The notes beneath the pieces are model-generated. The model had not been told where the DNA came from and ran no database searches. It saw only the letters and a list, made by a program, of their open reading frames with translations. Source: a virus (taxonomy: Duplodnaviria; Caudoviricetes). From it: a DNA stretch of 35,885 nt. Each line of letters starts with the position of its first letter. The first letter of the stretch is position 1. Below, piece after piece: positions 22,634-34,467 of the stretch. Made by a program: the position numbers and the translations under genes. The stretch covers positions 1 through 35,885 of the IMG/VR virus record IMGVR_UViG_3300037483_000262; one strand, written 5' to 3'.

Positions 22634-22979
22634 AGTGCTTTTGATTATGCTACTCGGCAATACAAAACGCAAGAAAAAGCTATGTAATAATAGTGGCGTT
22701 TTGTCAAAAAGGCAAAAAAGCTGATCGGTCCGCTGTGGGAAGTATAAGCCTATTCCTGCACCCACCCACACCCTACCCCCCCTCCCCCCTGGTCTACCAT
22801 TCACCTTAGCCCTTCGCCTCCTTCCACCCTCCCCGCCTCCCAAGCTATTGACATACATTGACAGTATTATTATATATATGTCCGCTATTGACCCCTGATG
22901 AATTGGGTCGTTAAATAACTATTTTGCGACGTGAAAAACCTATTATAACATCACCACCTCTGTTAGTTTCTTACAACAC

Positions 22980-23184
22980 TTTGTAGACACTTAGACACTT
23001 GGTTTTCTATAATTAATAGCCTTTAATACTTTTATTAATTTTTAGAATACTACTACAACAACTGTCTACAAATAGAACAGCGACAAAATAAACTTTTGTA
23101 GACACCACCACACCCCTGTTTTACCTCCTCCCTGCCTGTTGTAATTTTGTATACGATTTGTAGACACTTGTAACTGTCTACAAA
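22980..23184. repeat. Five TTTGTAGACA iteron-like repeats (putative replication origin)
   Basis: Forward copies at 22980, 23095 and 23157; reverse copies at 23063 and 23175; AT-rich spacers; located where the two arms diverge. Confidence 0.75.
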
Positions 23185-23223
23185 AACACCTATCATAATA
23201 ATTAATAATTCCATTAATAGTTA

Positions 23224-23252
23224 TTGACAATTAATAATCCATTTGGTATACT
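23224..23252 (+). promoter_or_regulatory. Strong sigma70 early promoter TTGACA-17-TATACT with extended TG
   Basis: TTGACA at 23224-23229; TGG-TATACT at 23244-23252. Confidence 0.85.
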
Positions 23253-23257
23253 GCTTG

Positions 23258-23460
23258 CAGGATCGATTGACGACCGGACCGACAACGACAAAGCTACATA
23301 GCAGTCACGGCCAACAGTCAAACAATCCTGATCAATAACAATATAAGGATACAGTTTCCACTACTACCCGACGCAGAGTAAAGGCAATATGCTGGCGGTT
23401 CAAATCCGCTCCCTCCATGAAGGCAGAACTCTTAGGGTGGGTAGTCGCGGGAACTGTACG
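23258..23460 (+). ncRNA. Putative structured leader/ncRNA containing a tRNA-like T-arm
   Basis: Two multi-stem domains starting at the predicted TSS; GGCGG-TTCAAAT-CCGCT at 23394-23410. Confidence 0.5.
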
Positions 23461-23480
23461 AAGAGAAAGGATAGATCGCC

Positions 23481-23924
23481 ATGAGCAAGCTATTCACTAA
23501 GTACGAAGCTATCTTGAAGGGTGGCACAATTAAAGAAGGCGAGATTTTAGGGCTGAAAAAAATTCTAAACGGTTACGCCAACGTATCAGTAACAGAAGAC
23601 GAGCGAAAGCAATTGCTTGATCTTGTATATGAGCATGAGCCGCGAGTCACTAAAGAACAGGCCGAAAAAGGCTTGAACTGGTTGAATAATCAGCGCCGGA
23701 CCCCTCGAGGTGTTGAGCGGAAAAATAATCCGTTTGGTACTCGAGAGGAGCAAATTCTTGACGACTTCGATCACTTTACCTTAAGCGGTTTCTATGATCT
23801 ACGAATGGCCTCAAGTTTTGCGCCGGAATTACATAACTACGTTCAATGCTACACGGTTCACGACAACGAAGGGTACTCTTTTGAGTATTATGTCGCCGGC
23901 GGCCAGATTGAGATTATAGGATAA
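23481..23924 (+). CDS. Hypothetical early protein
   Basis: 147 aa; RBS AAAGGA. Confidence 0.8.
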   Translation: MSKLFTKYEAILKGGTIKEGEILGLKKILNGYANVSVTEDERKQLLDLVYEHEPRVTKEQAEKGLNWLNNQRRTPRGVERKNNPFGTREEQILDDFDHFTLSGFYDLRMASSFAPELHNYVQCYTVHDNEGYSFEYYVAGGQIEIIG

Positions 23925-24064
23925 TGACTCAATATCTGATCAGCGCAAGCATGAAGCCGTATACCGTAAAAGTCCAGTTTGTAGAAGAGGCGGCGAACTG
24001 GTCCGAGGTTACGGCCAAATATCCCGACGCCGAATTAATAAAAGTGATAAAGGAGTCAAAATAA
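23924..24064 (+). CDS. Small hypothetical protein (46 aa, not in ORF track)
   Basis: MTQYLISASMKPYTVKV...KESK; TAATG-coupled at both ends. Confidence 0.75.
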   Translation: MTQYLISASMKPYTVKVQFVEEAANWSEVTAKYPDAELIKVIKESK

Positions 24065-24351
24065 TGTACACAATCATAAGCGCAAAGCGATTAAGCAACG
24101 GCGCCGGCGGGAGTGATATATTCACCAAGTCCGGCCAGGTCCGAAAGGATTGCAACGTCACAACTTTCGATGGTACGCCGGAAGAAGCCAAAGCCTACCT
24201 GGACACGATCAAATACCAGGCGACCGGCAAGCCGTATGTCTTCACTCATATCGAAGGCCGCGATCTGTTCAACTGCCGAAGTATAGTCAGGCAAGATGTT
24301 AACGGCCTGATCTGCTCACCTCAAAAGCTGGCTGATCTGCTAGGAGTGTAA
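24064..24351 (+). CDS. Hypothetical protein
   Basis: 95 aa; RBS AAGGAG; TAATG overlap. Confidence 0.75.
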   Translation: MYTIISAKRLSNGAGGSDIFTKSGQVRKDCNVTTFDGTPEEAKAYLDTIKYQATGKPYVFTHIEGRDLFNCRSIVRQDVNGLICSPQKLADLLGV

Positions 24352-24416
24352 TTGATGGACCTGTGGCCGGAAGTCCTTAAAAGCCGGATCAACCATAACA
24401 AATAAAGGAGGGTATA

Positions 24417-24710
24417 ATGTCTACACTGTCAAGCTATAAGCTAGACTTTGAGGAATTACCCCTAAAAACCCGAAAGGGTGGGAAGGACAGTAAAATGTCA
24501 AAAGCAAACCAGACTGAAGCACCCGCTAAAGTCTACAACAAGACCCGAGGCGAGCACGTCAAAGACGTTATGATCGCCGTTCTGGTCGCTAGCATAATCG
24601 CCTTTATTGGCGGTATGCAGTTCGCTAACAAGCAAAACGCTACTGTTAGCGAGGCGGTGAAAGCCGTTACATTAACACAAGACGCCGAAGCGACCTCCCT
24701 AAAAAAATAA
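24417..24710 (+). CDS. Membrane-anchored protein (possible N-terminal part of a frameshifted transglycosylase)
   Basis: TM helix VMIAVLVASIIAFIGGMQFA; RBS AAGGAGG; alternative start at 24495; ends CTA AAA AAA TAA. Confidence 0.75.
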   Translation: MSTLSSYKLDFEELPLKTRKGGKDSKMSKANQTEAPAKVYNKTRGEHVKDVMIAVLVASIIAFIGGMQFANKQNATVSEAVKAVTLTQDAEATSLKK

Positions 24711-25087
24711 TGGGGGCCGCTCCTCCGGAAGTGGAGGAGGTCAAAGCACCCCCTCTTACTGGCTGTGAGGCTGTGCGAGCGGAAATCGCCGAGTATGGCG
24801 GTTGGGACGTGAATCTGGTGGCGGCAATAGCCGAAGCCGAGAATCGGGCCTGTAATCCGCTCAAGCATAATCTAACGGCAAGCGAAACACACCGCCGGCG
24901 CGACGGATCAGTGATATGCGTCGGGAGCTATGGAGCTCTACAAGTGGGGTGCTTGCACTACCGCGAGGGTGAGGACCGCAATGACTTGAAAACCAATGTC
25001 AAAGTGGCTCACCGAGTTTGGGAGGGATCGGGCTACACGGCCTGGACAATGTACAAAAACGGAACATATAGGGAGTTCTTAAAATGA
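24710..25087 (+). CDS. Lysozyme-like / SLT lytic transglycosylase domain
   Basis: VAAIAEAEN (candidate catalytic Glu), SYGALQV, NVKVAHRVW...GYTAW. Confidence 0.8.
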   Translation: MGAAPPEVEEVKAPPLTGCEAVRAEIAEYGGWDVNLVAAIAEAENRACNPLKHNLTASETHRRRDGSVICVGSYGALQVGCLHYREGEDRNDLKTNVKVAHRVWEGSGYTAWTMYKNGTYREFLK

Positions 25088-25248
25088 GATATTACTATTT
25101 GGAGCGGCCTTCCCGACTTAAACGGAACGCCGGTCGATCATTTTGGACGATACTGGCCCTGCTAGTGTTGCTCATGCTATGGGACGCGCTATTCAATAAC
25201 TGCGGCTGGTTCATTAATTTAATAATATGGAGTTCGGAGCGAATATGA
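25084..25248 (+). CDS. Small membrane protein (54 aa, not in ORF track)
   Basis: MRYYYLERPSRLKRNAGRSFWTILALLVLLMLWDALF...; ATGA overlaps at both ends. Confidence 0.65.
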   Translation: MRYYYLERPSRLKRNAGRSFWTILALLVLLMLWDALFNNCGWFINLIIWSSERI

Positions 25249-25322
25249 AAACATTTATCGTAAGGCTGGTAATCGGAGCAATCGCTCTTGGTATTGCTGC
25301 GCTATTTACTATGGGAGGCTAG
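25245..25322 (+). CDS. 25-aa hydrophobic peptide (not in ORF track)
   Basis: MKTFIVRLVIGAIALGIAALFTMGG; GGAG RBS; ATGA overlap; fills the gap up to the helicase start. Confidence 0.6.
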   Translation: MKTFIVRLVIGAIALGIAALFTMGG

Positions 25323-25323
25323 T

Positions 25324-26616
25324 ATGATTAATCTTTATGAATATCAGAAGAAGTATCTGGCCGACCTGAAACCGCGCTCAATAATGGCGGCCGATACCGG
25401 AACAGGCAAGACGTTTATGGCATTGGTTCACTATCAGAAGTGGTCGCTACAATTCTTGAGTGCTAATGGAAGGGTTACGTTCAGGCCGCCTCTTCTTATA
25501 TTGGCGCCGGCCTCCAAAGTCCGAACCGAGGATTGGGAGCGCGAAATTACGGAATGGTTTGGCGAGGGCAATGAACCGGAATATCAAATATACTCTTATG
25601 AAAAATTCAGCCGCAATCCTTCGCTTAAACAATTTCGGGAGGGCAAACGTGCTATCTGGCATGATTACGCACCGAAATACGGCGGCAAGCAATGGGCTGT
25701 GATATGCGACGAAGTACACCGAGCCAAAAACCCGCAATCTGGTATCGGTAAGGCTGTCTATTGGACTGCCAAAGACGCTCAATTCTTCGTCGGCCTATCG
25801 GCTACCCCGCTGCCGAACGGCTGGATCGACTTCGCCAATTATTCAAAGATATGGGGATTCACCAAAGGCATAACCGAGTTCAAAAATCGCTACTGTGAAT
25901 ATGTCGATTACAAGGGTTTCCCCGAGCTCAAGCAATACTGGCATATTGACGAGCTTATGAAGCAATGGGATTCGGTATCTAAAAAGCTGACTAAGGCTGA
26001 AGCCAATGACCTTCCGGACCGCACCTTCGTCGGCGTGGACTTCAAGCGGCCGCCGGCCTACATCAAAACCATAATAGAACGCAAAAACGCCGCCGGCGAC
26101 TTGCTCGACTCGGCCGGCGCTCTGGCCCACGCCATTCGCCAAACGCTCACGCCGGTCAAACTGGACTACTTATCTGACCTACTCGACGGAACGAACGAAA
26201 ACGTCGTGATTTTCTACAACTACATCACCGAACGCGAGGCGATACTTGACCTGTTAAGTAAAAAGCACAAGGATAAGACTGTTTTCCGGCAAGATGGCGA
26301 GAAACATCAGCTACCGAAAAAAGCCGATTGGAGCGGCATTACCAATTCAGTCACAGTATCGCATTACCGGTCCGGATCAACCGGCGTTGAAATGACATAC
26401 GCTACCCAGGTGATTTACTTCAGTCCGACCTATTCATACGCTGACTACTTGCAATCAATCGGCCGCGTATACCGCAACGGCCAAACCAATAAAACCACGT
26501 TTTATAATTTTAGGACGCCGAATAGTATTGAGGAGGATATCTATACGGTGCTCAAAACCAAGAACGACTTTCAAGTCGCTCAATGGATTAAGAAAACATT
26601 TAAGGAGGAAGAATAA
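25324..26616 (+). CDS. SNF2-like SF2 helicase
   Basis: LYEYQ, DTGTGKT, DEVHRAKN, LSATP, QSIGRVYRNGQ; start MINL after GGAGG. Confidence 0.92.
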   Translation: MINLYEYQKKYLADLKPRSIMAADTGTGKTFMALVHYQKWSLQFLSANGRVTFRPPLLILAPASKVRTEDWEREITEWFGEGNEPEYQIYSYEKFSRNPSLKQFREGKRAIWHDYAPKYGGKQWAVICDEVHRAKNPQSGIGKAVYWTAKDAQFFVGLSATPLPNGWIDFANYSKIWGFTKGITEFKNRYCEYVDYKGFPELKQYWHIDELMKQWDSVSKKLTKAEANDLPDRTFVGVDFKRPPAYIKTIIERKNAAGDLLDSAGALAHAIRQTLTPVKLDYLSDLLDGTNENVVIFYNYITEREAILDLLSKKHKDKTVFRQDGEKHQLPKKADWSGITNSVTVSHYRSGSTGVEMTYATQVIYFSPTYSYADYLQSIGRVYRNGQTNKTTFYNFRTPNSIEEDIYTVLKTKNDFQVAQWIKKTFKEEE

Positions 26617-26798
26617 TGCAATATGTCTATTATATCCGCAAACGCAAAGACGGCGAACCACCGATCTCGATTGTTGAAATGAGTGATATTGAAGATGGCG
26701 ATTACGTCACAATTCACTTTGATAAAAAGCGACACGTTACTATTAAAAGCAATAACAAAAAATATAAAAAGCACAACAATAATTCTGTTGACGAATAA
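26616..26798 (+). CDS. Small hypothetical protein
   Basis: 60 aa; RBS AAGGAGG; TAATG overlap. Confidence 0.6.
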   Translation: MQYVYYIRKRKDGEPPISIVEMSDIEDGDYVTIHFDKKRHVTIKSNNKKYKKHNNNSVDE

Positions 26799-26816
26799 TG
26801 TTCATTAATATAGACT
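26788..26816 (+). promoter_or_regulatory. Sigma70 promoter TTGACG-17-TAGACT
   Basis: Near-consensus boxes with 17-nt spacing upstream of ORF 26845. Confidence 0.65.
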
Positions 26817-26844
26817 AATAATTACCACTACGCAAAGGGGTTCT

Positions 26845-27105
26845 ATGAAAAAGTACACAATCTACGCTTATAAGCACTATTGGCCTGACCATCTTAACGA
26901 TCCGGACAGCGGTGATATTCCAGTACCTTATAGTAAAGACGAACGCGATTATGTGATCGAGGCTGAAAGCGAAAAAGAAGCTATTAAAATTGCTGAAGAA
27001 AATTACGGAAGTGGTGAGCGCACTACTGAAGATGGCAAATATATACCAAATTCTGATGGAAGCTGGACTTTGATGGGTGTCAAAAAAGTCGAGGTTCTAA
27101 AATGA
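26845..27105 (+). CDS. Hypothetical protein
   Basis: 86 aa; RBS AAGGGG; IEAESEKEAIKIAE motif common in small phage proteins. Confidence 0.75.
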   Translation: MKKYTIYAYKHYWPDHLNDPDSGDIPVPYSKDERDYVIEAESEKEAIKIAEENYGSGERTTEDGKYIPNSDGSWTLMGVKKVEVLK

Positions 27106-28346
27106 CTCAAGCTGAAGCAATTGACCTGATGATGTCCGGAGCAAGTATATTCCTTACTGGCGAACCAGGAGCCGGCAAGACATATACTCTGAACCAATTC
27201 ATCGAAAAGGCTCGCGCGGCTGATAAGCGAATAGCGATCACGGCCTCAACCGGTATCGCGGCCAGCCATATAAACGGCGTGACGATCCATTCATGGAGCG
27301 GACTTGGCATTGCCGATTCAATAACTGACGCCGAGTTGGATCGCATGAGCTATAAATCATTCCTGCGGGACAAATACAACCGGTGTGACATTCTGATTAT
27401 TGACGAGATATCAATGCTCCACAATTACAGGCTCGATATGATTGAGCGAGCCTGTCGGTGGGTCCGTAACCGGTTTAATGATCCGTTCGGTGGGTTACAA
27501 GTAATATTGGTAGGTGATCTGTTCCAATTGCCGCCGGTGACGCGGGACAGCTTCGGTGATGATTACGTTCACCAGTCCGAGGCGTGGAACGCGGCCGACC
27601 TGAAAGTGGCGTACCTCACGGAGCAGCACCGGCAGGGAGCCGACGACCAATTGCTGACTATCTTGCGCCAAATGCGAACCGGCGATCTATCCGTCGAATC
27701 GCGCCAACGCCTCGCAAGCCGGCAACGTCCCTCTGACGACGATTCAATTACTCGCCTCTATACTCACAACGTAGACGTGGACGCGCTGAATCGCAAGAAG
27801 CTTGACGAGCTTGAAGGCAAGCACCGCACTTTTCACATGAAAAGTTCTGGCGATAAATACCGTAGCCAAGCCATGCGACGCAATATACTCGCACCAGAAG
27901 CGCTTGAGCTTAAGGTTGGCGCCGAGGTGATGTTCGTGGCTAATAATTGGGACGAAGGCTTCGTGAATGGCACGAGGGGCCGAGTAACCGGATTCACCGG
28001 TTCGGGTGAGCCACAAGTTGAAACAGTTGATGGTAACTTCGTGACAGTCGAGAAGCACACCTGGAAGGCTTTTGATGATCTTGGTCAGTATGTAGTCGCC
28101 GAGGTGTCACAATACCCGCTACGGCTCGCCTGGGCTGTTACTATACATAAAAGCCAGGGTATGAGCTTAGACGCCGCTGAAATTGATCTTGGCAAGGCGT
28201 TTGCGCCAGGAATGGGATACGTTGCGCTTAGTCGGGTTCGCAGCCTCGAAGGGTTATACCTTCTTGGCCTCGGTGAACAGGCGTTCGCAATGGACCAAGA
28301 TATCCGTAAATTCGATAAACTATTAAGGAAGGGGAGGTCAAAATAA
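27102..28346 (+). CDS. PIF1/RecD-like SF1B helicase
   Basis: TGEPGAGKT, ASTGIAA, IDEISM, PFGGLQVILVGDLFQLPPV, QYPLRLAWAVTIHKSQGMSLD, YVALSR. Confidence 0.95.
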   Translation: MTQAEAIDLMMSGASIFLTGEPGAGKTYTLNQFIEKARAADKRIAITASTGIAASHINGVTIHSWSGLGIADSITDAELDRMSYKSFLRDKYNRCDILIIDEISMLHNYRLDMIERACRWVRNRFNDPFGGLQVILVGDLFQLPPVTRDSFGDDYVHQSEAWNAADLKVAYLTEQHRQGADDQLLTILRQMRTGDLSVESRQRLASRQRPSDDDSITRLYTHNVDVDALNRKKLDELEGKHRTFHMKSSGDKYRSQAMRRNILAPEALELKVGAEVMFVANNWDEGFVNGTRGRVTGFTGSGEPQVETVDGNFVTVEKHTWKAFDDLGQYVVAEVSQYPLRLAWAVTIHKSQGMSLDAAEIDLGKAFAPGMGYVALSRVRSLEGLYLLGLGEQAFAMDQDIRKFDKLLRKGRSK

Positions 28347-28522
28347 TGGCTGAACAGAATATTAATGTAACGGTTACTATGCCGGTGTCATACGCCGCAT
28401 ATATCGACCGTAAAGCGGCTACGAAGGATCAAAATCGTAGTCAGGTTGTCCGCGCCATGATCCGCAAGGATATGGAAGAAGACGCCGCTAACAAGCCTAA
28501 AAAAGTTAAGGGAGGGAAGTAA
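28346..28522 (+). CDS. Ribbon-helix-helix (CopG/Arc-like) DNA-binding protein (58 aa, not in ORF track)
   Basis: MAEQNINVTVTMPVSYAAYIDRKAATKDQNRSQVVRAMIRKDM; TAATG-coupled at both ends. Confidence 0.8.
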   Translation: MAEQNINVTVTMPVSYAAYIDRKAATKDQNRSQVVRAMIRKDMEEDAANKPKKVKGGK

Positions 28523-29217
28523 TGGCCGTAGAAATAATAAGAGCAAAGCCAGTCGCACCGAGCAAGTTCTTGGTGATTGGCGAGCCGTTTAGTGGCAAAA
28601 CCACATTAGCGGCTAAAGCGCCGAAACCGGTGTTTATCAGCACCGACGGCAATTCGGCCAAGCAGGGGCTTGATACGATTCGTGTCAAGACGGTTCAGGA
28701 CGTCCGTGACGCCATGCAATTGGTGGCAGGGACCAAAGACTATAAAACAATCGTGGTTGACACTGTTGAGGGTATCGTTGATATCTTTGGCGATCAGGTG
28801 TTGTCCGAGTTCAGCAATTACCGGACTCCGGAAGGCAAACCGATCCAGGCGCTTCAGGACGTGCCATTCGGTCGGGCCACTGGTGTACTCAATAAGCGAA
28901 TCCAGGCTTTCGCTGAAGCGCTGATGAAGCTCCCGCATAACGTCGTCGTGCTTAGTTATACTAAGCGGGTTCAGGACGACATTTCCGGCGCTATCAAGCT
29001 AGAGAGCGAGTTTAAGGGTATTCGCCTGTTCACGCGCTTCATGGACGCTCAAGTGCTGTGTTACAGTGATGGCGAGAAGCACCGAGTCAGCTTAATCGAA
29101 AAGCGTGAAGTAATGGCCGGCAAGGTCGATTATGGTGAGATTGGTGATTTCCTAACTGCTATCGGTTGGGAATTACCGAAGAAGTCAACTAAGGTCGGAA
29201 CAGCGAGGAAGCGGTAA
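28522..29217 (+). CDS. AAA_24 ATPase (Sak4-like single-strand annealing protein candidate)
   Basis: GEPFSGKTT, ISTDGN, TIVVDTV; near SSB-like and exonuclease genes. Confidence 0.8.
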   Translation: MAVEIIRAKPVAPSKFLVIGEPFSGKTTLAAKAPKPVFISTDGNSAKQGLDTIRVKTVQDVRDAMQLVAGTKDYKTIVVDTVEGIVDIFGDQVLSEFSNYRTPEGKPIQALQDVPFGRATGVLNKRIQAFAEALMKLPHNVVVLSYTKRVQDDISGAIKLESEFKGIRLFTRFMDAQVLCYSDGEKHRVSLIEKREVMAGKVDYGEIGDFLTAIGWELPKKSTKVGTARKR

Positions 29218-29504
29218 TGGCAAACGTTCATCAACTTAGCAAAGAAAATCAGATGGGAGTTTGGTATCAAGGCAAAGAGTATTGGATACCGGCAATCCCC
29301 TATCCGTTTTTCACTACCAAAGGTTTGCCATTTTGGAAGCGATTCAATGAAAAGAATTGGCGACCTCAATGTGTTTGCGGTAGAATTTTCGAAACTCTGG
29401 AAGACTATAACGCTCATATCGTGTACAACAATACCTTATGGGGTCTTGCTGACGGAGTGAAAACATCAAATGTATCAATAACTAACAATAAGGAGGATCA
29501 GTAA
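29217..29504 (+). CDS. Hypothetical protein with zinc-finger-like motif
   Basis: CVCGRIFETLEDYNAH; TAATG overlap. Confidence 0.6.
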   Translation: MANVHQLSKENQMGVWYQGKEYWIPAIPYPFFTTKGLPFWKRFNEKNWRPQCVCGRIFETLEDYNAHIVYNNTLWGLADGVKTSNVSITNNKEDQ

Positions 29505-29505
29505 A

Positions 29506-30075
29506 ATGGTCAAATTTAGCGACGAGCACAAAGAAGAGCAACAAGGTAATTACTTCGGTCAGGGAGTTCACAAGGTCCAAATTATGCTTGTGGAGTTTGG
29601 TAAGACCGACGACGGCAAAGAGTTCGGTGAATTTACTGTCGTTGATCCGGAAAACGACGATCGGCAAGACAGGGTTCGATTGTGGTTCACAACCGACAAA
29701 GCTGTAAAATTCAGCTTTAGCACCCTTCGCAACATCTTCGTTCATAATGCACCGGAAGACAAAAAGGATTCCACCCGCGAGAAATTCAACGCTTTGAAGG
29801 ATACCGAAGAGCTTGAACAGGCGTGTACGAAAACTCTAATTGGCAAGGAATGTTGGTACACCTTGTACGAGGACCCCGAGCGAACATATACCAACGACAA
29901 GGGTGAAGTGAAAAACAGCTATAACCGGAACATTTACGGATACGAGCCAAAACCTCGCACCGTTACGCCGGCCGAAGGCGTTGAAGATGTCCAGGTTGAT
30001 AGCGGTGAACAAACTAAAAAAGCTGATGGTGATCCAGGTCCGCAAGACCCAGGCAGTCAACCATTCGGATTCTAG
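29506..30075 (+). CDS. Putative single-stranded DNA-binding protein (DUF669-like)
   Basis: Beta-rich N-terminus and acidic disordered tail ending QPFGF; typical position after an AAA_24 gene. Confidence 0.6.
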   Translation: MVKFSDEHKEEQQGNYFGQGVHKVQIMLVEFGKTDDGKEFGEFTVVDPENDDRQDRVRLWFTTDKAVKFSFSTLRNIFVHNAPEDKKDSTREKFNALKDTEELEQACTKTLIGKECWYTLYEDPERTYTNDKGEVKNSYNRNIYGYEPKPRTVTPAEGVEDVQVDSGEQTKKADGDPGPQDPGSQPFGF

Positions 30076-30083
30076 GAGGGGAT

Positions 30084-30323
30084 ATGAAAGCTTTGAGCTA
30101 CCTCGCATTAATCACTGGCGTTCTGTTTCTCGGTTTCACTATCGGAACAGTAGTCGGCTCACAAAAAGAAAAACAATATACCCTTAAGCCATACACCGGA
30201 CTTGGTTCCGGCGTATTGGCCCCAGGGACCGTACTGAAAGAAAACTATAAGAGTCCGGCTTCCGTTATCGGCAAAGTTGACGGCGGGGTTTGGATAATCG
30301 AGGAGGTGTCAAATGACAATTAA
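30084..30323 (+). CDS. Small membrane/secreted protein
   Basis: N-terminal hydrophobic helix; RBS AGGAGG. Confidence 0.65.
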   Translation: MKALSYLALITGVLFLGFTIGTVVGSQKEKQYTLKPYTGLGSGVLAPGTVLKENYKSPASVIGKVDGGVWIIEEVSNDN

Positions 30324-30552
30324 AGAAGCTGCTAAAGAGTTGAAAAAGCTCAAAAACATTCAAGGTCGGACCGGCAATTGGGACTACAATCCCTATATGC
30401 ACGGCTTGTACAACGGCATTGAGTTGGCTCTGGCTACTGTTGAGGGCCGCGATCCGGAGTTCAAGGAAGCACCGGCACGCTGGCTCGAAAAGAACCCAAC
30501 CGTTAATAAACCTCGGGACCCGATCGGCCACGAGAAAGACTTGCGTGTATGA
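30313..30552 (+). CDS. Hypothetical protein
   Basis: 79 aa; RBS AGGAGGT; GNWDYNPYMHGLYNGIELALA. Confidence 0.75.
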   Translation: MTIKEAAKELKKLKNIQGRTGNWDYNPYMHGLYNGIELALATVEGRDPEFKEAPARWLEKNPTVNKPRDPIGHEKDLRV

Positions 30553-31232
30553 AGTTCGAATACTTCGCTGGCGAACAGCGCACCGAACCCTGGTTCCAAG
30601 CTCGAATCGGCAAGGTAACAGCTAGTAATCTTTACCGATGGCTGGCTGTTAGCAAGCGTGACGGATCGCCGCTGAAGGCACGTCACGACTACGAGCGAGA
30701 GCTCATGTTCGAAAGGACGTTCAATACGATATTCGAAAAATGGAGCAATAGCGCCATGCAAGAGGGTATCGACTTTGAAGCCTTTGCGCGGCAAGAGTAC
30801 GAACGGATTACCGGTAAAAAGGTAACAGAGGTCGGGTGTTGGTTTAACGAGTTCTTCGCGGCCTCGCCGGACGGCGGGGTTGATGATGAAGGATTACTCG
30901 AAATCAAGTGGCTCAAAGATACCAATTGGACCGAGGTGCTTCAAACACAAGCTCCGTATGTCGGCAGCGGTGCGGACCACTGGAAACAGTGTCAGGGCCA
31001 ATTATTCGCTTCTAAGCGTAAATGGTGCGACTATGCCGCCGGCAACCTTAACACCAAGAAGATCATCATACTTCGCGTTTTACCAGATAAGAAGTTCTTC
31101 AAAGAGCTCGAAGAATCACTCAAACAGCCAATTTCAGTTGAAAAATTTAATCTTAAAAATGTTCACGATCTCAAGCTGGAACTACCAGAAGGAGCTACGC
31201 CTCCGTCTGATGGTCCGGATTTTGGGTTCTAA
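30549..31232 (+). CDS. YqaJ / lambda-exonuclease-family recombination nuclease
   Basis: QRTEPWFQARIGKVTAS, AMQEG..FE..AR, ASPDG, LEIK, QCQGQL. Confidence 0.92.
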   Translation: MKFEYFAGEQRTEPWFQARIGKVTASNLYRWLAVSKRDGSPLKARHDYERELMFERTFNTIFEKWSNSAMQEGIDFEAFARQEYERITGKKVTEVGCWFNEFFAASPDGGVDDEGLLEIKWLKDTNWTEVLQTQAPYVGSGADHWKQCQGQLFASKRKWCDYAAGNLNTKKIIILRVLPDKKFFKELEESLKQPISVEKFNLKNVHDLKLELPEGATPPSDGPDFGF

Positions 31233-31241
31233 GGAGGGACT

Positions 31242-31832
31242 ATGTTAGACAGATCATTACATAATGCACACGCGGTAGCTTACATCGTTAAGTCGTACCC
31301 CGATAAAAAGATAACCGAAATGAAAGTAGTCAACGGCAGGGCAGAAGAAGTCGGTATTGCTGGAATGTTCGTATTGCCAGTAATGGAGTTCAACGCAGCC
31401 GTTTGGCGTGCCGAAGACCTGGGGTTGATCGAGGTCGCGGCCGACAAATCAGGTGACGTCCGCTTCGCGGGTGATCCCGAAAAGTGGGAGTTCAACGAGG
31501 AAACTCGGCTCATAATCGAAGACCTTCCCTACGTCCTTAAAAAGTTTGCCAAAAGTGAAACCGATTTCGAAGGCAATTACTTGAGCAATTGGACGCTTGG
31601 ATTTGAGCCGCAGAATATTTTCGTTGCCACCAAGTACCTGATTAACGAAGGTATCGTGGCCGAATATGAGCTCACTACTCGAGTGGTATTTGAGCCAAGC
31701 AAAAAAGGTTTGAAGCGCGGCAAAGTACCAAAAGAATCGAAACAAACATACGAGTTCTATACGTTACCGGAAAATCTCGACAAGCAATGGGGCCGAAAAA
31801 TGTTCCCCGATCAATCGAAATTAATCGATTAA
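31242..31832 (+). CDS. Hypothetical protein
   Basis: 196 aa; RBS AAGGAGG. Confidence 0.8.
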   Translation: MLDRSLHNAHAVAYIVKSYPDKKITEMKVVNGRAEEVGIAGMFVLPVMEFNAAVWRAEDLGLIEVAADKSGDVRFAGDPEKWEFNEETRLIIEDLPYVLKKFAKSETDFEGNYLSNWTLGFEPQNIFVATKYLINEGIVAEYELTTRVVFEPSKKGLKRGKVPKESKQTYEFYTLPENLDKQWGRKMFPDQSKLID

Positions 31833-31892
31833 ACCGAATAGTGCTATAATGCAAATATCCTACTTGGTTGTAGGAGAACCACTTTGCGTATT

Positions 31893-32273: not shown

Positions 32274-32351
32274 GCCGGATTGATAGTACAATTATAAGAA
32301 AAGCTTGTGATATAATATAGGGGTGAGGTTGAGTCCCGCGAGGGGTTCAGC

Positions 32352-32385
32352 AAAATCGAGGGCAATGCGGGAGCCCTCGATTTTT
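32352..32385 (+). terminator. Intrinsic terminator (possibly bidirectional)
   Basis: AAAATCGAGGGC-9 nt-GCCCTCGATTTTT. Confidence 0.8.
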
Positions 32386-32513
32386 GTTATAATGGTAGTG
32401 CTAAACAGGGGGTATGCTGAAGCGGTTTAGCTTCATCATTTTGAGTAGCTTAGAAAAGTTCAAGCTTTACTACGAAGACCTTCCTCAAAAGAAGTATAAA
32501 ATTCGTAAGAAGC

Positions 32514-32545
32514 AAAAAAGAGCTCTGAAATAGGAGCTCTTTTTT
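32514..32545. terminator. Bidirectional terminator where the two arms converge
   Basis: AAAAAAGAGCTC-8 nt-GAGCTCTTTTTT. Confidence 0.85.
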
Positions 32546-32882: not shown

Positions 32883-33590
32883 TTATTTGACTATAAACTT
32901 ATGAGTCCCTGGGGTCAGTATTGTGCCACCATCTTGACATTGCGCTAGGTCTTTAGCCGCTTTAGTAACTTTAGCCGACTCTTCTACTAGCAATTTACGT
33001 TGGATAGCTGAAACATATTGCGCCATTTCCTTCCAAGGGCGACTATCAAAGCGTTTTATTTCACCGCTAGTAGGGTCGCGTCTTAAATATGTTTTGAAAT
33101 GTGCTTTTATTTCAGCAATAGTTGGTATCACGATAGGTTCTTCCTCCTTATAAGTTTTTAATCGATAAACATTCGGGTTCTTACTTGCTCGCCAACTTTC
33201 AGTTTCACTACCGATACGAGAAGCATAAACTCTTTGACCATCGACGATCTTCGAAGCTACACCTCCCATATTAACATTTTCTTCAAAAACCCGACCATTA
33301 CTAAGCTGTACCGCAATATGACCATAAGTGCCATACTCGTAACAGATCAAATCCCCGCGCTTACGCTGTGAATAGGCCACTTTAATAGCGTGACCTTGAG
33401 ATACTAGAGCCTTACCGACGTACCGAGCGTCCCCTCTGGCAGCGTGGGGGTTCGGTACACTCGTCATATCTTCCATAAAATTCTTGGTCAGGGTTACACA
33501 CTGACCTTCGAGTGACGCTACAACAGTCTTAAAAAAGATATTTAGTCGTTTAGCAGCATAGAGATCAGCATTAAGAGCTACTTGGGCCAT
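32883..33590 (-). CDS. Endolysin with CHAP/NlpC-P60-like peptidase domain
   Basis: GQCV (catalytic Cys), YGHIAV (His), FEEN; C-terminal helical region. Confidence 0.8.
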   Translation of the reverse strand: MAQVALNADLYAAKRLNIFFKTVVASLEGQCVTLTKNFMEDMTSVPNPHAARGDARYVGKALVSQGHAIKVAYSQRKRGDLICYEYGTYGHIAVQLSNGRVFEENVNMGGVASKIVDGQRVYASRIGSETESWRASKNPNVYRLKTYKEEEPIVIPTIAEIKAHFKTYLRRDPTSGEIKRFDSRPWKEMAQYVSAIQRKLLVEESAKVTKAAKDLAQCQDGGTILTPGTHKFIVK

Positions 33591-33651
33591 TGTCAGCTTC
33601 TTCCTCTGGTTCTACCGGCGGTGCGGGTCTATCAACTGGTTCTTGCCCCAT
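33571..33651 (-). CDS. 26-aa acidic Pro-rich peptide (not in ORF track)
   Basis: MGQEPVDRPAPPVEPEEEADNGPSSS with GGGAGGG RBS and upstream TATAAT (33678-33683); overlaps the endolysin start. Confidence 0.45.
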   Translation of the reverse strand: MGQEPVDRPAPPVEPEEEADNGPSSS

Positions 33652-33710
33652 ATACCCTCCCTTGCTTTAATACTTGTATTATAAACCAATAAAATTTAAT
33701 AGTCTATCTA

Positions 33711-34121
33711 TCATTTATTGATTTCAGCTTGGCAATCACGTTGAGCAAAAGTTCTGTCAATAAATGTTTCAAATTCACTAATTCGTTTTTCCTGTTCTGC
33801 GGTACGCGGCTCCGAAGGAGGTAACGCTAAGATGTAATCCCAAAGGGCATGATTATTTTCACGCGAATCATTGGCAACCTCACAGTTAGCAACAATAGCG
33901 TCTTTAGCTTTTTGTGCAAGTCTAGCTAGTTGGTTGGTTTTATAAGTAAGGAGGCCAAAACCAACTGTTAATAAAAGATTAAATACAATACACACAGCAA
34001 GTATGCGAAGTTGCCTCGTGCGCCGGTGAGCGTCTTTTGTCAAGACTTCTATGCTTTCTTCGGCAGGGTGTTTTTCCATCTGTTTGTCTAGCTCGTCAGA
34101 TCGTTCGTCTAAATTACCCAT
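33711..34121 (-). CDS. Membrane protein with one TM helix (lysis-associated?)
   Basis: ILAVCIVFNLLLTVGFGLLTY followed by a helical domain with two Cys. Confidence 0.7.
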   Translation of the reverse strand: MGNLDERSDELDKQMEKHPAEESIEVLTKDAHRRTRQLRILAVCIVFNLLLTVGFGLLTYKTNQLARLAQKAKDAIVANCEVANDSRENNHALWDYILALPPSEPRTAEQEKRISEFETFIDRTFAQRDCQAEINK

Positions 34122-34467
34122 CTTGCAATTCCCCTTTCAGCGCCAATAAACGCTTATTCTCTTCGCGTAACTCTTCTATTATACGCTTCAGTTCAGCAAT
34201 CTTTTCGATCATACTGGCTGAATTTAGTCGGAGTTTGCCAAGTTCGTCCATGACTGATTGAAGTTTATTATTGACCTCTTGAAGCCGCTGTTCAAGCACT
34301 TCGGCACGTTTCCGATATTCTTGCCGTAAGTCATTACTTTCCTTCCAAAGAGTTGCCGCTTCAGAAGTTGAAATACTACCAGAGGTGGTTCTCTTAGCAA
34401 TTTTGTAGGTAACGTAAGATGAGGCAATTATTCCGATTAGGACTGAAATCGGTGTTATCCACTCCAT
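34114..34467 (-). CDS. N-terminal TM plus coiled-coil protein (lysis-associated?)
   Basis: WITPISVLIGIIASSYVTY followed by a heptad pattern. Confidence 0.7.
   Translation of the reverse strand: MEWITPISVLIGIIASSYVTYKIAKRTTSGSISTSEAATLWKESNDLRQEYRKRAEVLEQRLQEVNNKLQSVMDELGKLRLNSASMIEKIAELKRIIEELREENKRLLALKGELQDG

Follow-up and report, generated by a model that had tools for sequence, protein, structure and literature searches.

The region from position 23258 to 23480 (plus strand) of this phage genome is predicted to encode a structured, noncoding leader RNA behind the main early promoter. It is composed of a 5'-terminal hairpin (domain 1) and a long outer rod that carries a folded head (domain 2). 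The window analyzed is the whole virus record, 35,885 bases long and 98% complete. The structure itself is real, and the exchangeable-head cassette is its interesting part: family-wide, the leader keeps its 5' hairpin and outer rod and has an exchangeable head. At the sequence level, comparison of related phages establishes the layout, the covariation, the plus-strand polarity, the exchange of heads, and the variation of their loops. As to function, we see about an even chance that this is a structured early leader with a hairpin that shields the 5' end, a rod likely cut by RNase III, and an exchangeable head that contains a generic T-loop.

That early transcripts of phages can have structured leaders and RNase III stems is already known. 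What appears to be undescribed is one fixed rod that bears no fewer than eight distinct RNA folds, each conserved internally and absent from Rfam. No description of the leader was found in the literature searched. IMG/VR has been surveyed for structured RNAs, with 8,495 candidates (PMC10690425), and some of the heads may already be among the unnamed ones. The leader family supplies several new covarying RNA motifs, along with exact predictions of cut sites and product sizes.

Setting and relatives

The leader is found in the gap (22859 to 23480) that separates the leftward from the rightward gene block of the window. The gap was annotated with a C-rich tract, five repeats, the promoter, the leader RNA, a Shine-Dalgarno sequence, and a gene for a 147-aa protein. 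The C-rich tract at 22760 to 22845 (G-rich on the minus strand) lies to the left of the repeats, and many relatives have one. The TGTAGACA/TGTCTACA repeats (22980 to 23185; five copies in both orientations) are part of the genomic context and lie outside the leader RNA. The same repeats are found in relatives, where TGTAGACA, direct and inverted, is conserved with variants. They likely represent either a replication origin (for the P4-type helicase of the phage) or a protein-binding array upstream of the promoter.

A primase search yielded 14 loci, and full examination of 13 records showed all of them to be syntenic. Further relatives were added by repeat pattern, ORF alignment, and helicase alignment. 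The repeat pattern had 43 matches in metagenomes; 13 were assigned to the same family on the basis of the promoter and leader that follow, and 30 were dropped. It also had 9 matches in viral contigs, of which 1 was dropped. In relatives with the region present and the promoter recognizable, the order is the same: repeats, a TTGACA-17-TANNNT promoter, an AG start, the 5' hairpin, an A-rich linker, mostly a rod, a Shine-Dalgarno sequence, and a variable first gene. The rods of the relatives comprise 20 to 24 bp and end just upstream of the ribosome-binding site. L109 and L206 have no rod ahead of the first gene, and the promoter-leader unit was not recognized in several distant loci, nor in G012-G013. 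In G003 (33579 to 34423), L216, and L199, the same promoter is followed by a much longer leader that includes several additional folded modules.

Promoter and overall fold

The promoter at 23224 to 23252 (plus strand) is of the sigma-70 type, TTGACA-17-TATACT with an extended -10 element, and its spacing is conserved in relatives. The sequence-only reading had called it the strongest promoter. This holds by consensus score (11/12 plus the TG of the extended -10), which is a score and not a measured strength: of the 44 sites listed as promoter-like in the window, no other combines 11/12 with TG, and two further sites score 11/12 without it. The transcription start that it had placed at 23258 is nearly right in position, but A23259 is the likelier base, because relatives keep an AG at this promoter spacing and the C23258-G23330 pair is weak (p 0.50) and is lost in G009. 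Host RNA polymerase would thus start at A23259.

The predicted leader fold has an energy of -66.5 kcal/mol (z -3.73), and none of 200 shuffled sequences folds as well. All pairings previously listed for domains 1 and 2 are present in the sequence and are formed in the prediction. As had been stated, the stem of 20 bp (23350-23369/23439-23458) contains exactly one G-U pair and two mismatches (A23360.C23448 and U23362.C23446), and its 18 paired positions have probabilities of 0.92 to 1.0. The AGAGT/ACTCT helix (23375-79/23428-32) forms with p 0.84 to 0.99 and the hairpin at 23394 to 23410 with p 0.73 to 0.97. The A-rich linker at 23331 to 23349 (plus strand) is single stranded in the predicted fold and similar in relatives. 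A Shine-Dalgarno-like AGAAAGGA (23464 to 23471, plus strand) is found 5 nt past the rod and is unpaired in the fold.

The proposal of an undescribed structured RNA is supported: the leader is conserved and covaries in relatives behind the main early promoter and is absent from Rfam. A search of the window against Rfam 15 gave no match at gathering score and two chance matches only at E ≤ 10, and the leaders of 14 and of 8 related loci likewise had no Rfam match at gathering score. A BLASTN search with 321 nt of the region found no match in cultured phages.

Domain 1

Domain 1 (23259 to 23330, plus strand) is a beaded hairpin of short Watson-Crick helices and A/C-rich loops with 14 homologues. 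In these it is a string of 2- to 6-bp helices. The helices contain a single G-U in 252 pairs, and A or C accounts for 418 of the 463 unpaired bases. The base helix is found as GGAU/AUCC, GAUC/GAUC, or GAAUC/GAUUC, the second helix as UUGAC/GUCAA, GUUAGC/GCUAAC, or GUUC/GAAC, and the tip as GCU/AGC or GCG/CGC. This inner covariation comes from a helix-by-helix reading, as the alignment is too poor for automatic covariation analysis, which recovers 9 outer pairs only. Domain 1 starts within about 3 bases of the predicted transcription start, and a hairpin that begins right at the start of a transcript has the anatomy of a 5' stabilizer. It would fold at once, leaving almost no unpaired 5' end, and would likely shield the start of the RNA. 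In more distant phages, domain 1 is reduced to a short hairpin whose loop is different. Short 5' hairpins in L106 (4516 to 4536), L097, L206, L209, L213, and L216 display a conserved AAGGAAC-type loop, which we take to resemble a Shine-Dalgarno or CsrA-type site.

The near absence of G-U pairs would also be expected of a DNA hairpin, and the leader is located 75 nt from the origin-like repeats of a phage that encodes a P4-type helicase and no recognizable polymerase. Hence the leader might be a replication element, either a primer RNA or a single-stranded DNA hairpin for the adjacent origin. We regard this as quite improbable: domain 2 uses G-U freely (40 of 457 pairs), domain 1 is fixed to the promoter rather than to the repeats and varies in length, and an A/C-rich RNA would be a poor R-loop former.

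The minus strand of domain 1 folds equally well as the plus strand or better. The loop oppositions, 38 A.C and 35 A.A, give no sign of selected minus-strand G-U pairs. Together with the plus-strand G-U alternation in the rods, they do not favor a minus-strand RNA.

The rod and its predicted cleavage by RNase III

The two strands of the outer rod (23350 to 23369 and 23439 to 23458, plus strand) meet in a central C23361-G23447 pair flanked by the two mismatches. In all, 16 distinct rods were read. In six relatives with related heads, 149 of the 150 cells in the rod and inner helix are paired, compared to 30 to 36% in slid controls, and 14 of the 25 pairs show changes on both sides. The covariation score of the rod was reached by none of 500 shuffles, a test that is inflated by the relatedness of the sequences. 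Both-side changes are also found in 12 of 37 pairs among the three sequences with type B heads. The check for conservation and covariation in related phages, which the sequence-only reading had named, thus favors the RNA. Read on the plus strand, five rod positions switch between G-U and A-U or G-C, a pattern consistent with plus-strand polarity of the RNA.

The RNase III registers were counted in the 12 related rods that start with AUG...CAU or align with such a start, with the register chosen after seeing the data; the rods of the window, G004, G008, and G006, which do not share this base register, were left out. Only one of seven registers (center 13/14) places A-U/U-A at both D (fourth) positions, in 11 and 9 of the 12 rods, over a background of 47%. 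In the same register, 10 of the 12 rods have C-G at the center and 10 of the 12 have a 5' G at J (tenth). A-U/U-A at D/D', G-C/C-G at the center, and G at J are described as preferences of Escherichia coli RNase III (PMC6212723, PMC1540722) and as broadly shared in Bacillus subtilis (PMC11780869).

The window rod has the preferred pairs at D' and at the center, but its lower D position is C-G, so that the rule fits on the upper side only. The rod of G004, the other complete one of type A, fits the D rule on neither side; both keep the central C-G/U.C element. The central A' position is a mismatch in 9 of the 12 rods, compared to in vivo E. coli sites that are reported to be about 90% paired at A' (PMC6212723). 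These misfits at D, the mismatches at A', and the rodless L109 and L206 speak against an RNase III-processed leader. On the other side, the window rod, with 20 positions and a further irregular helix, amounts to roughly two helical turns that have small interruptions, and one set of boxes is enough for one RNase III cut (PMC1540722), which makes a single nick plausible. The fit to RNase III is likely to be good for the family and partial for the window, with the caveat that the signature is that of the E. coli enzyme and may not be that of the host.

RNase III would cut the rod near the central C-G pair, with the main cut predicted after 23447 and perhaps a partner cut after 23362. In the R1.1 stem of phage T7, the single cut reportedly falls on the 3' strand. 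The predicted cleavage would produce a new 5' end of the early mRNA about 33 nt ahead of the AUG and would leave, upstream, a stable RNA of about 190 nt; cuts on both strands would release a head of 85 nt instead. It would not be needed to free the Shine-Dalgarno sequence, because in the window this is already unpaired in the intact fold. No such rod is found in the other early gaps of the window. A 9-nt word that is part of the rod's 5' strand in the window (23347 to 23355) recurs in the 3' strand in G004 (L026, 1814 to 1822), as if the stem had been flipped.

The closest known systems are the early RNAs of phages T7 and SP82, which are processed at RNase III stems (PMC8708148, PMC4838370). 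As with T7 R1.1 and the SP82 stems, the leader is part of an early transcript from a promoter for the host polymerase and has an interrupted two-turn stem before a gene, and the RNase III base pair preferences fit most members of the leader family. However, T7 and SP82 have a stem before each early gene, whereas here there is one rod, at the leader; it is capped by an exchangeable folded head of 35 to 90 nt, and its cleavage is predicted from sequence.

Exchangeable heads

About eight head folds are found on one rod among the 16 leaders. The head of the window (23370 to 23438, plus strand), labeled here type A, consists of an irregular helix (23371-79/23428-38), a short arm (23383-93), the T-loop hairpin, and a purine-rich linker, and is shared with G004. 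Type B is found in G009, G005/L058, and G008, type C in L054, L092, and L086, and type D in L070, L091, L106, and L194; types E, F, G, and H are represented by G006, L155, L209, and L213, respectively. Types C and D are related to each other. A model built from them recovers the six sequences that it was made from as well as L155 (E 4e-6); it does not recover the window. Type G, from the distant L209, has the paired AACG/AC loops of type B with a changed helix. In the heads of L024, L025, and L058 and in L209 (1995 to 2028), two-fold symmetric AACG/AC internal loops surround a 4-bp helix, and this loop pair resembles the sites of dimeric proteins. Within one head type, loops are constant and stems covary, suggesting that the head probably binds a partner, either protein or RNA.

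The heads vary independently of domain 1, the rod base, and the first gene. L070 and L086 are 92% alike in domain 1, yet they carry heads of types D and C. Domain 1 of the window is 76% alike to that of L054 (type C), 72% to that of G009 (type B), and 57% to that of G004, which shares its type A head. One first gene is found behind heads B and C and another behind D and F. One soil contig keeps head A and has 23241 to 23359 replaced (119 bases by 113 others). As the heads do not follow their neighbors and head A is kept in this contig next to a replaced upstream stretch, we infer that heads are exchanged by recombination. In another contig (X6), no substitution is found in 23279 to 23507 among the 40 of 139 rows listed, and there are two single-base deletions (23329 and 23337). 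Over 23279 to 23900, this contig differs from the window in 52 letters. In these 40 of 139 rows, the pattern would be a sign of strong conservation of 23279 to 23507.

The type A pattern has one match in viral contigs, which is G004, and none in GTDB genomes. With 53 nt of the head, BLASTN found no match in plasmids and only 13 matches at E = 4 in cultured phages, two of them on the T-arm of tRNA-Asp.

The diversity of heads might mean that the leader is a cassette for a small trans-acting RNA, with the rod as its release site and the head directed at a host protein or defense system. This is compatible with the RNase III-processed leader and places its purpose in the head. Several observations point that way: the many heads on one rod with invariant loops and covarying stems, the recurrence of the AACG/AC loop pair in type B and the distant L209 with the helix changed, and the first-transcribed position, from which abundant small RNAs are produced at Pleft of mycobacteriophages (PMC5712189). 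Against it, the head is neither repeated nor complementary to anything in the phage's own genome, apart from one chance-level 12-mer, and domain 2 is missing in some relatives. We tentatively entertain a slot of interchangeable small RNAs, decoys or sponges, that would be released by a constant RNase III-type rod and traded like early anti-defense genes, although it is not the likely outcome. If the heads do act in trans, the leader would mark a hotspot for early effectors that consist of RNA alone, probably in phages whose hosts are ultra-small bacteria. Like the leader, the Pleft RNAs of the cluster A mycobacteriophages L5, D29, and StarStuff are noncoding, directly follow the main early promoter, and lie in a variable region. 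As described (PMC5712189), they are about 500 nt long, abundant, and toxic, whereas the leader is about 200 nt long and known from sequence alone, and it is not known to be related to them in sequence.

Two stems directly behind the main early promoter are also the reported arrangement of put in phage HK022. An antitermination element had been among the earlier suggestions, and a put-like nascent RNA might modify RNA polymerase for the 9-kb early operon. No positive evidence for this was obtained: from 23480 to 31890, the plus strand has a single, weak terminator-like site, and the heads are unrelated between phages that share the operon. An antiterminator is accordingly held to be a distant prospect.

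The T-loop hairpin

The hairpin at 23394 to 23410 (plus strand) has a 5-bp stem and the loop UUCAAAU; U54, purine 57, and A58 are kept in homologues. The sequence-only reading took it for a canonical T-psi-C arm followed by CCCTCCA. This describes the window well, but not the relatives. In G004, the corresponding site in head A holds a hairpin of 4 bp that shows two compensatory changes; its loop is UGCAAGC, with G55 in place of U55. The pairing probability of this hairpin is about 0.45, and forcing it costs 0.3 kcal/mol. Hairpins of the form GG-U(U/G)CRA-NN-CC are found only 4 times in 928,668 bases (14 genomes), 2 of them at the same place in head A; with a pattern this rare, the match in G004 is not due to chance. 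Two soil contigs (run X7) have C23401A and A23402G, that is, C56A and A57G, and C56 is the base that builds the tRNA elbow; the changes among the rows listed leave U54 and A58. The CCCUCCA tail is absent in G004 and is not conserved, and the exact T-arm pattern had no match in viral contigs.

The hairpin is likely a generic T-loop folding motif and not a copy of tRNA, as the loop varies, the tail is not conserved, and the leader has no acceptor stem, D-arm, or CCA. Two closing G-C pairs, a U and an A that can pair across the triloop, and two bulged 3' bases are present both in the window and in G004. These are the elements of the T-loops of AdoCbl and FMN riboswitches, RNase P, as well as the T-box, for which the generic definition and riboswitch occurrences are given in PMC2258182 and PMC4919913; the G004 loop has the GNR triloop form described there for riboswitches. 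Unlike the riboswitches, the leader has a single T-loop and no riboswitch family match.

A tRNA mimic, which had been suggested as a decoy for tRNA nucleases or a signal for RNase P or RNase Z and could be a captured 3' half of a tRNA, is very unlikely, although a tRNA ancestry of the single copy in the window is conceivable. In the window alone, the order of short arm, T-arm, and CCCUCCA resembles the 3' half of a tRNA with a long variable arm, and relative G008 bears a true tRNA-like gene nearby, so that the lineage picks up such RNAs. However, only one of the roughly eight head types has the loop, and U55 and C56 are lost in relatives. As had been noted before, no 5' acceptor strand or anticodon arm is visible: the window leader has no 7-bp acceptor stem on the T-stem, no D-arm, no anticodon arm that might serve as bait for an anticodon nuclease, and no CCA or CCA-addable end, with UGA following CCCUCCA in its place. 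Pairing with the sole 6/7 acceptor partner (23435 to 23441) would come at the expense of the rod (p = 1.0), and this partner is not conserved in G004. ARAGORN, proposed as a check, called no tRNA in the window leader, and the tRNA model had no match there at E ≤ 10. An isolated hairpin that looks like a T-psi-C arm need not imply tRNA mimicry.

The tRNA-like gene of G008 (L025, 2070 to 2157, plus strand) is 88 nt long and lies on the other side of the origin; ARAGORN reports it as 'tRNA-???'. It has G3-U70, A73, an encoded CCA, a long variable arm, and no readable anticodon. We take G3-U70 and A73 to be an alanine-type identity. Its ends match the tmRNA model with E 4e-11, below gathering score. 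No counterpart was found in the window.

Features shared with the YrlA Y RNA (PMC4201824) are a size of about 115 nt, a long closing stem, and the order of variable arm, T arm, and short stem. Unlike YrlA, the leader has no GNCGAAN0-1G motif (G.CGAA does not occur in 23258 to 23480), no D stem-loop flanking an AS stem, and no YrlA match in Rfam at E ≤ 10, and the Ro60 (TROVE) gene, expected within about 4 kb of a YrlA RNA, has no match in the phage genome (G000). An identity with YrlA was therefore rejected on the motif, the D stem-loop, and the Ro60 gene.

Head A overlaps a 31-codon ORF (23389 to 23484), whose conservation the sequence-only reading regarded as a result that would count against an RNA. 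Its frame is open, and its stop overlaps the next AUG. In G004, however, the shared 14-nt block has a stop in its other frame and there is no matching peptide in any frame, so that the ORF is not conserved; it also has no Shine-Dalgarno sequence and no Pfam match. We give practically no credence to it as the functional element.

Other features of the phage

The window has the gene content of a tailed phage, with genes for capsid, terminase, the P4-type helicase, two further helicases, and Sak4 and YqaJ-type recombination genes. No integrase is found among the 45 ORFs scanned, and no polymerase is recognizable among the phage's genes despite the P4-type helicase. The first early gene (23481 to 23924, plus strand) encodes the 147-aa protein, which has 18 database homologues, none named by function, and no family match. 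The early ORF at 24710 to 25087 (plus strand) is conserved (173 homologues) and matches no Pfam family; an invariant Glu and a GxxQ pattern in it resemble those of a lytic transglycosylase. This ORF has homologues in a second group of phages as well, one of which, at locus L141, sits among genes with clusters named Nanosynbacter or Saccharibacteria. Hence the host of the phage is possibly a member of Saccharibacteria. Host searches with the primase gave no GTDB contigs, and those with the capsid a single match at 26%. A cluster of perfect hairpins at 32340 to 32545, where the early and late blocks converge, likely represents terminators.
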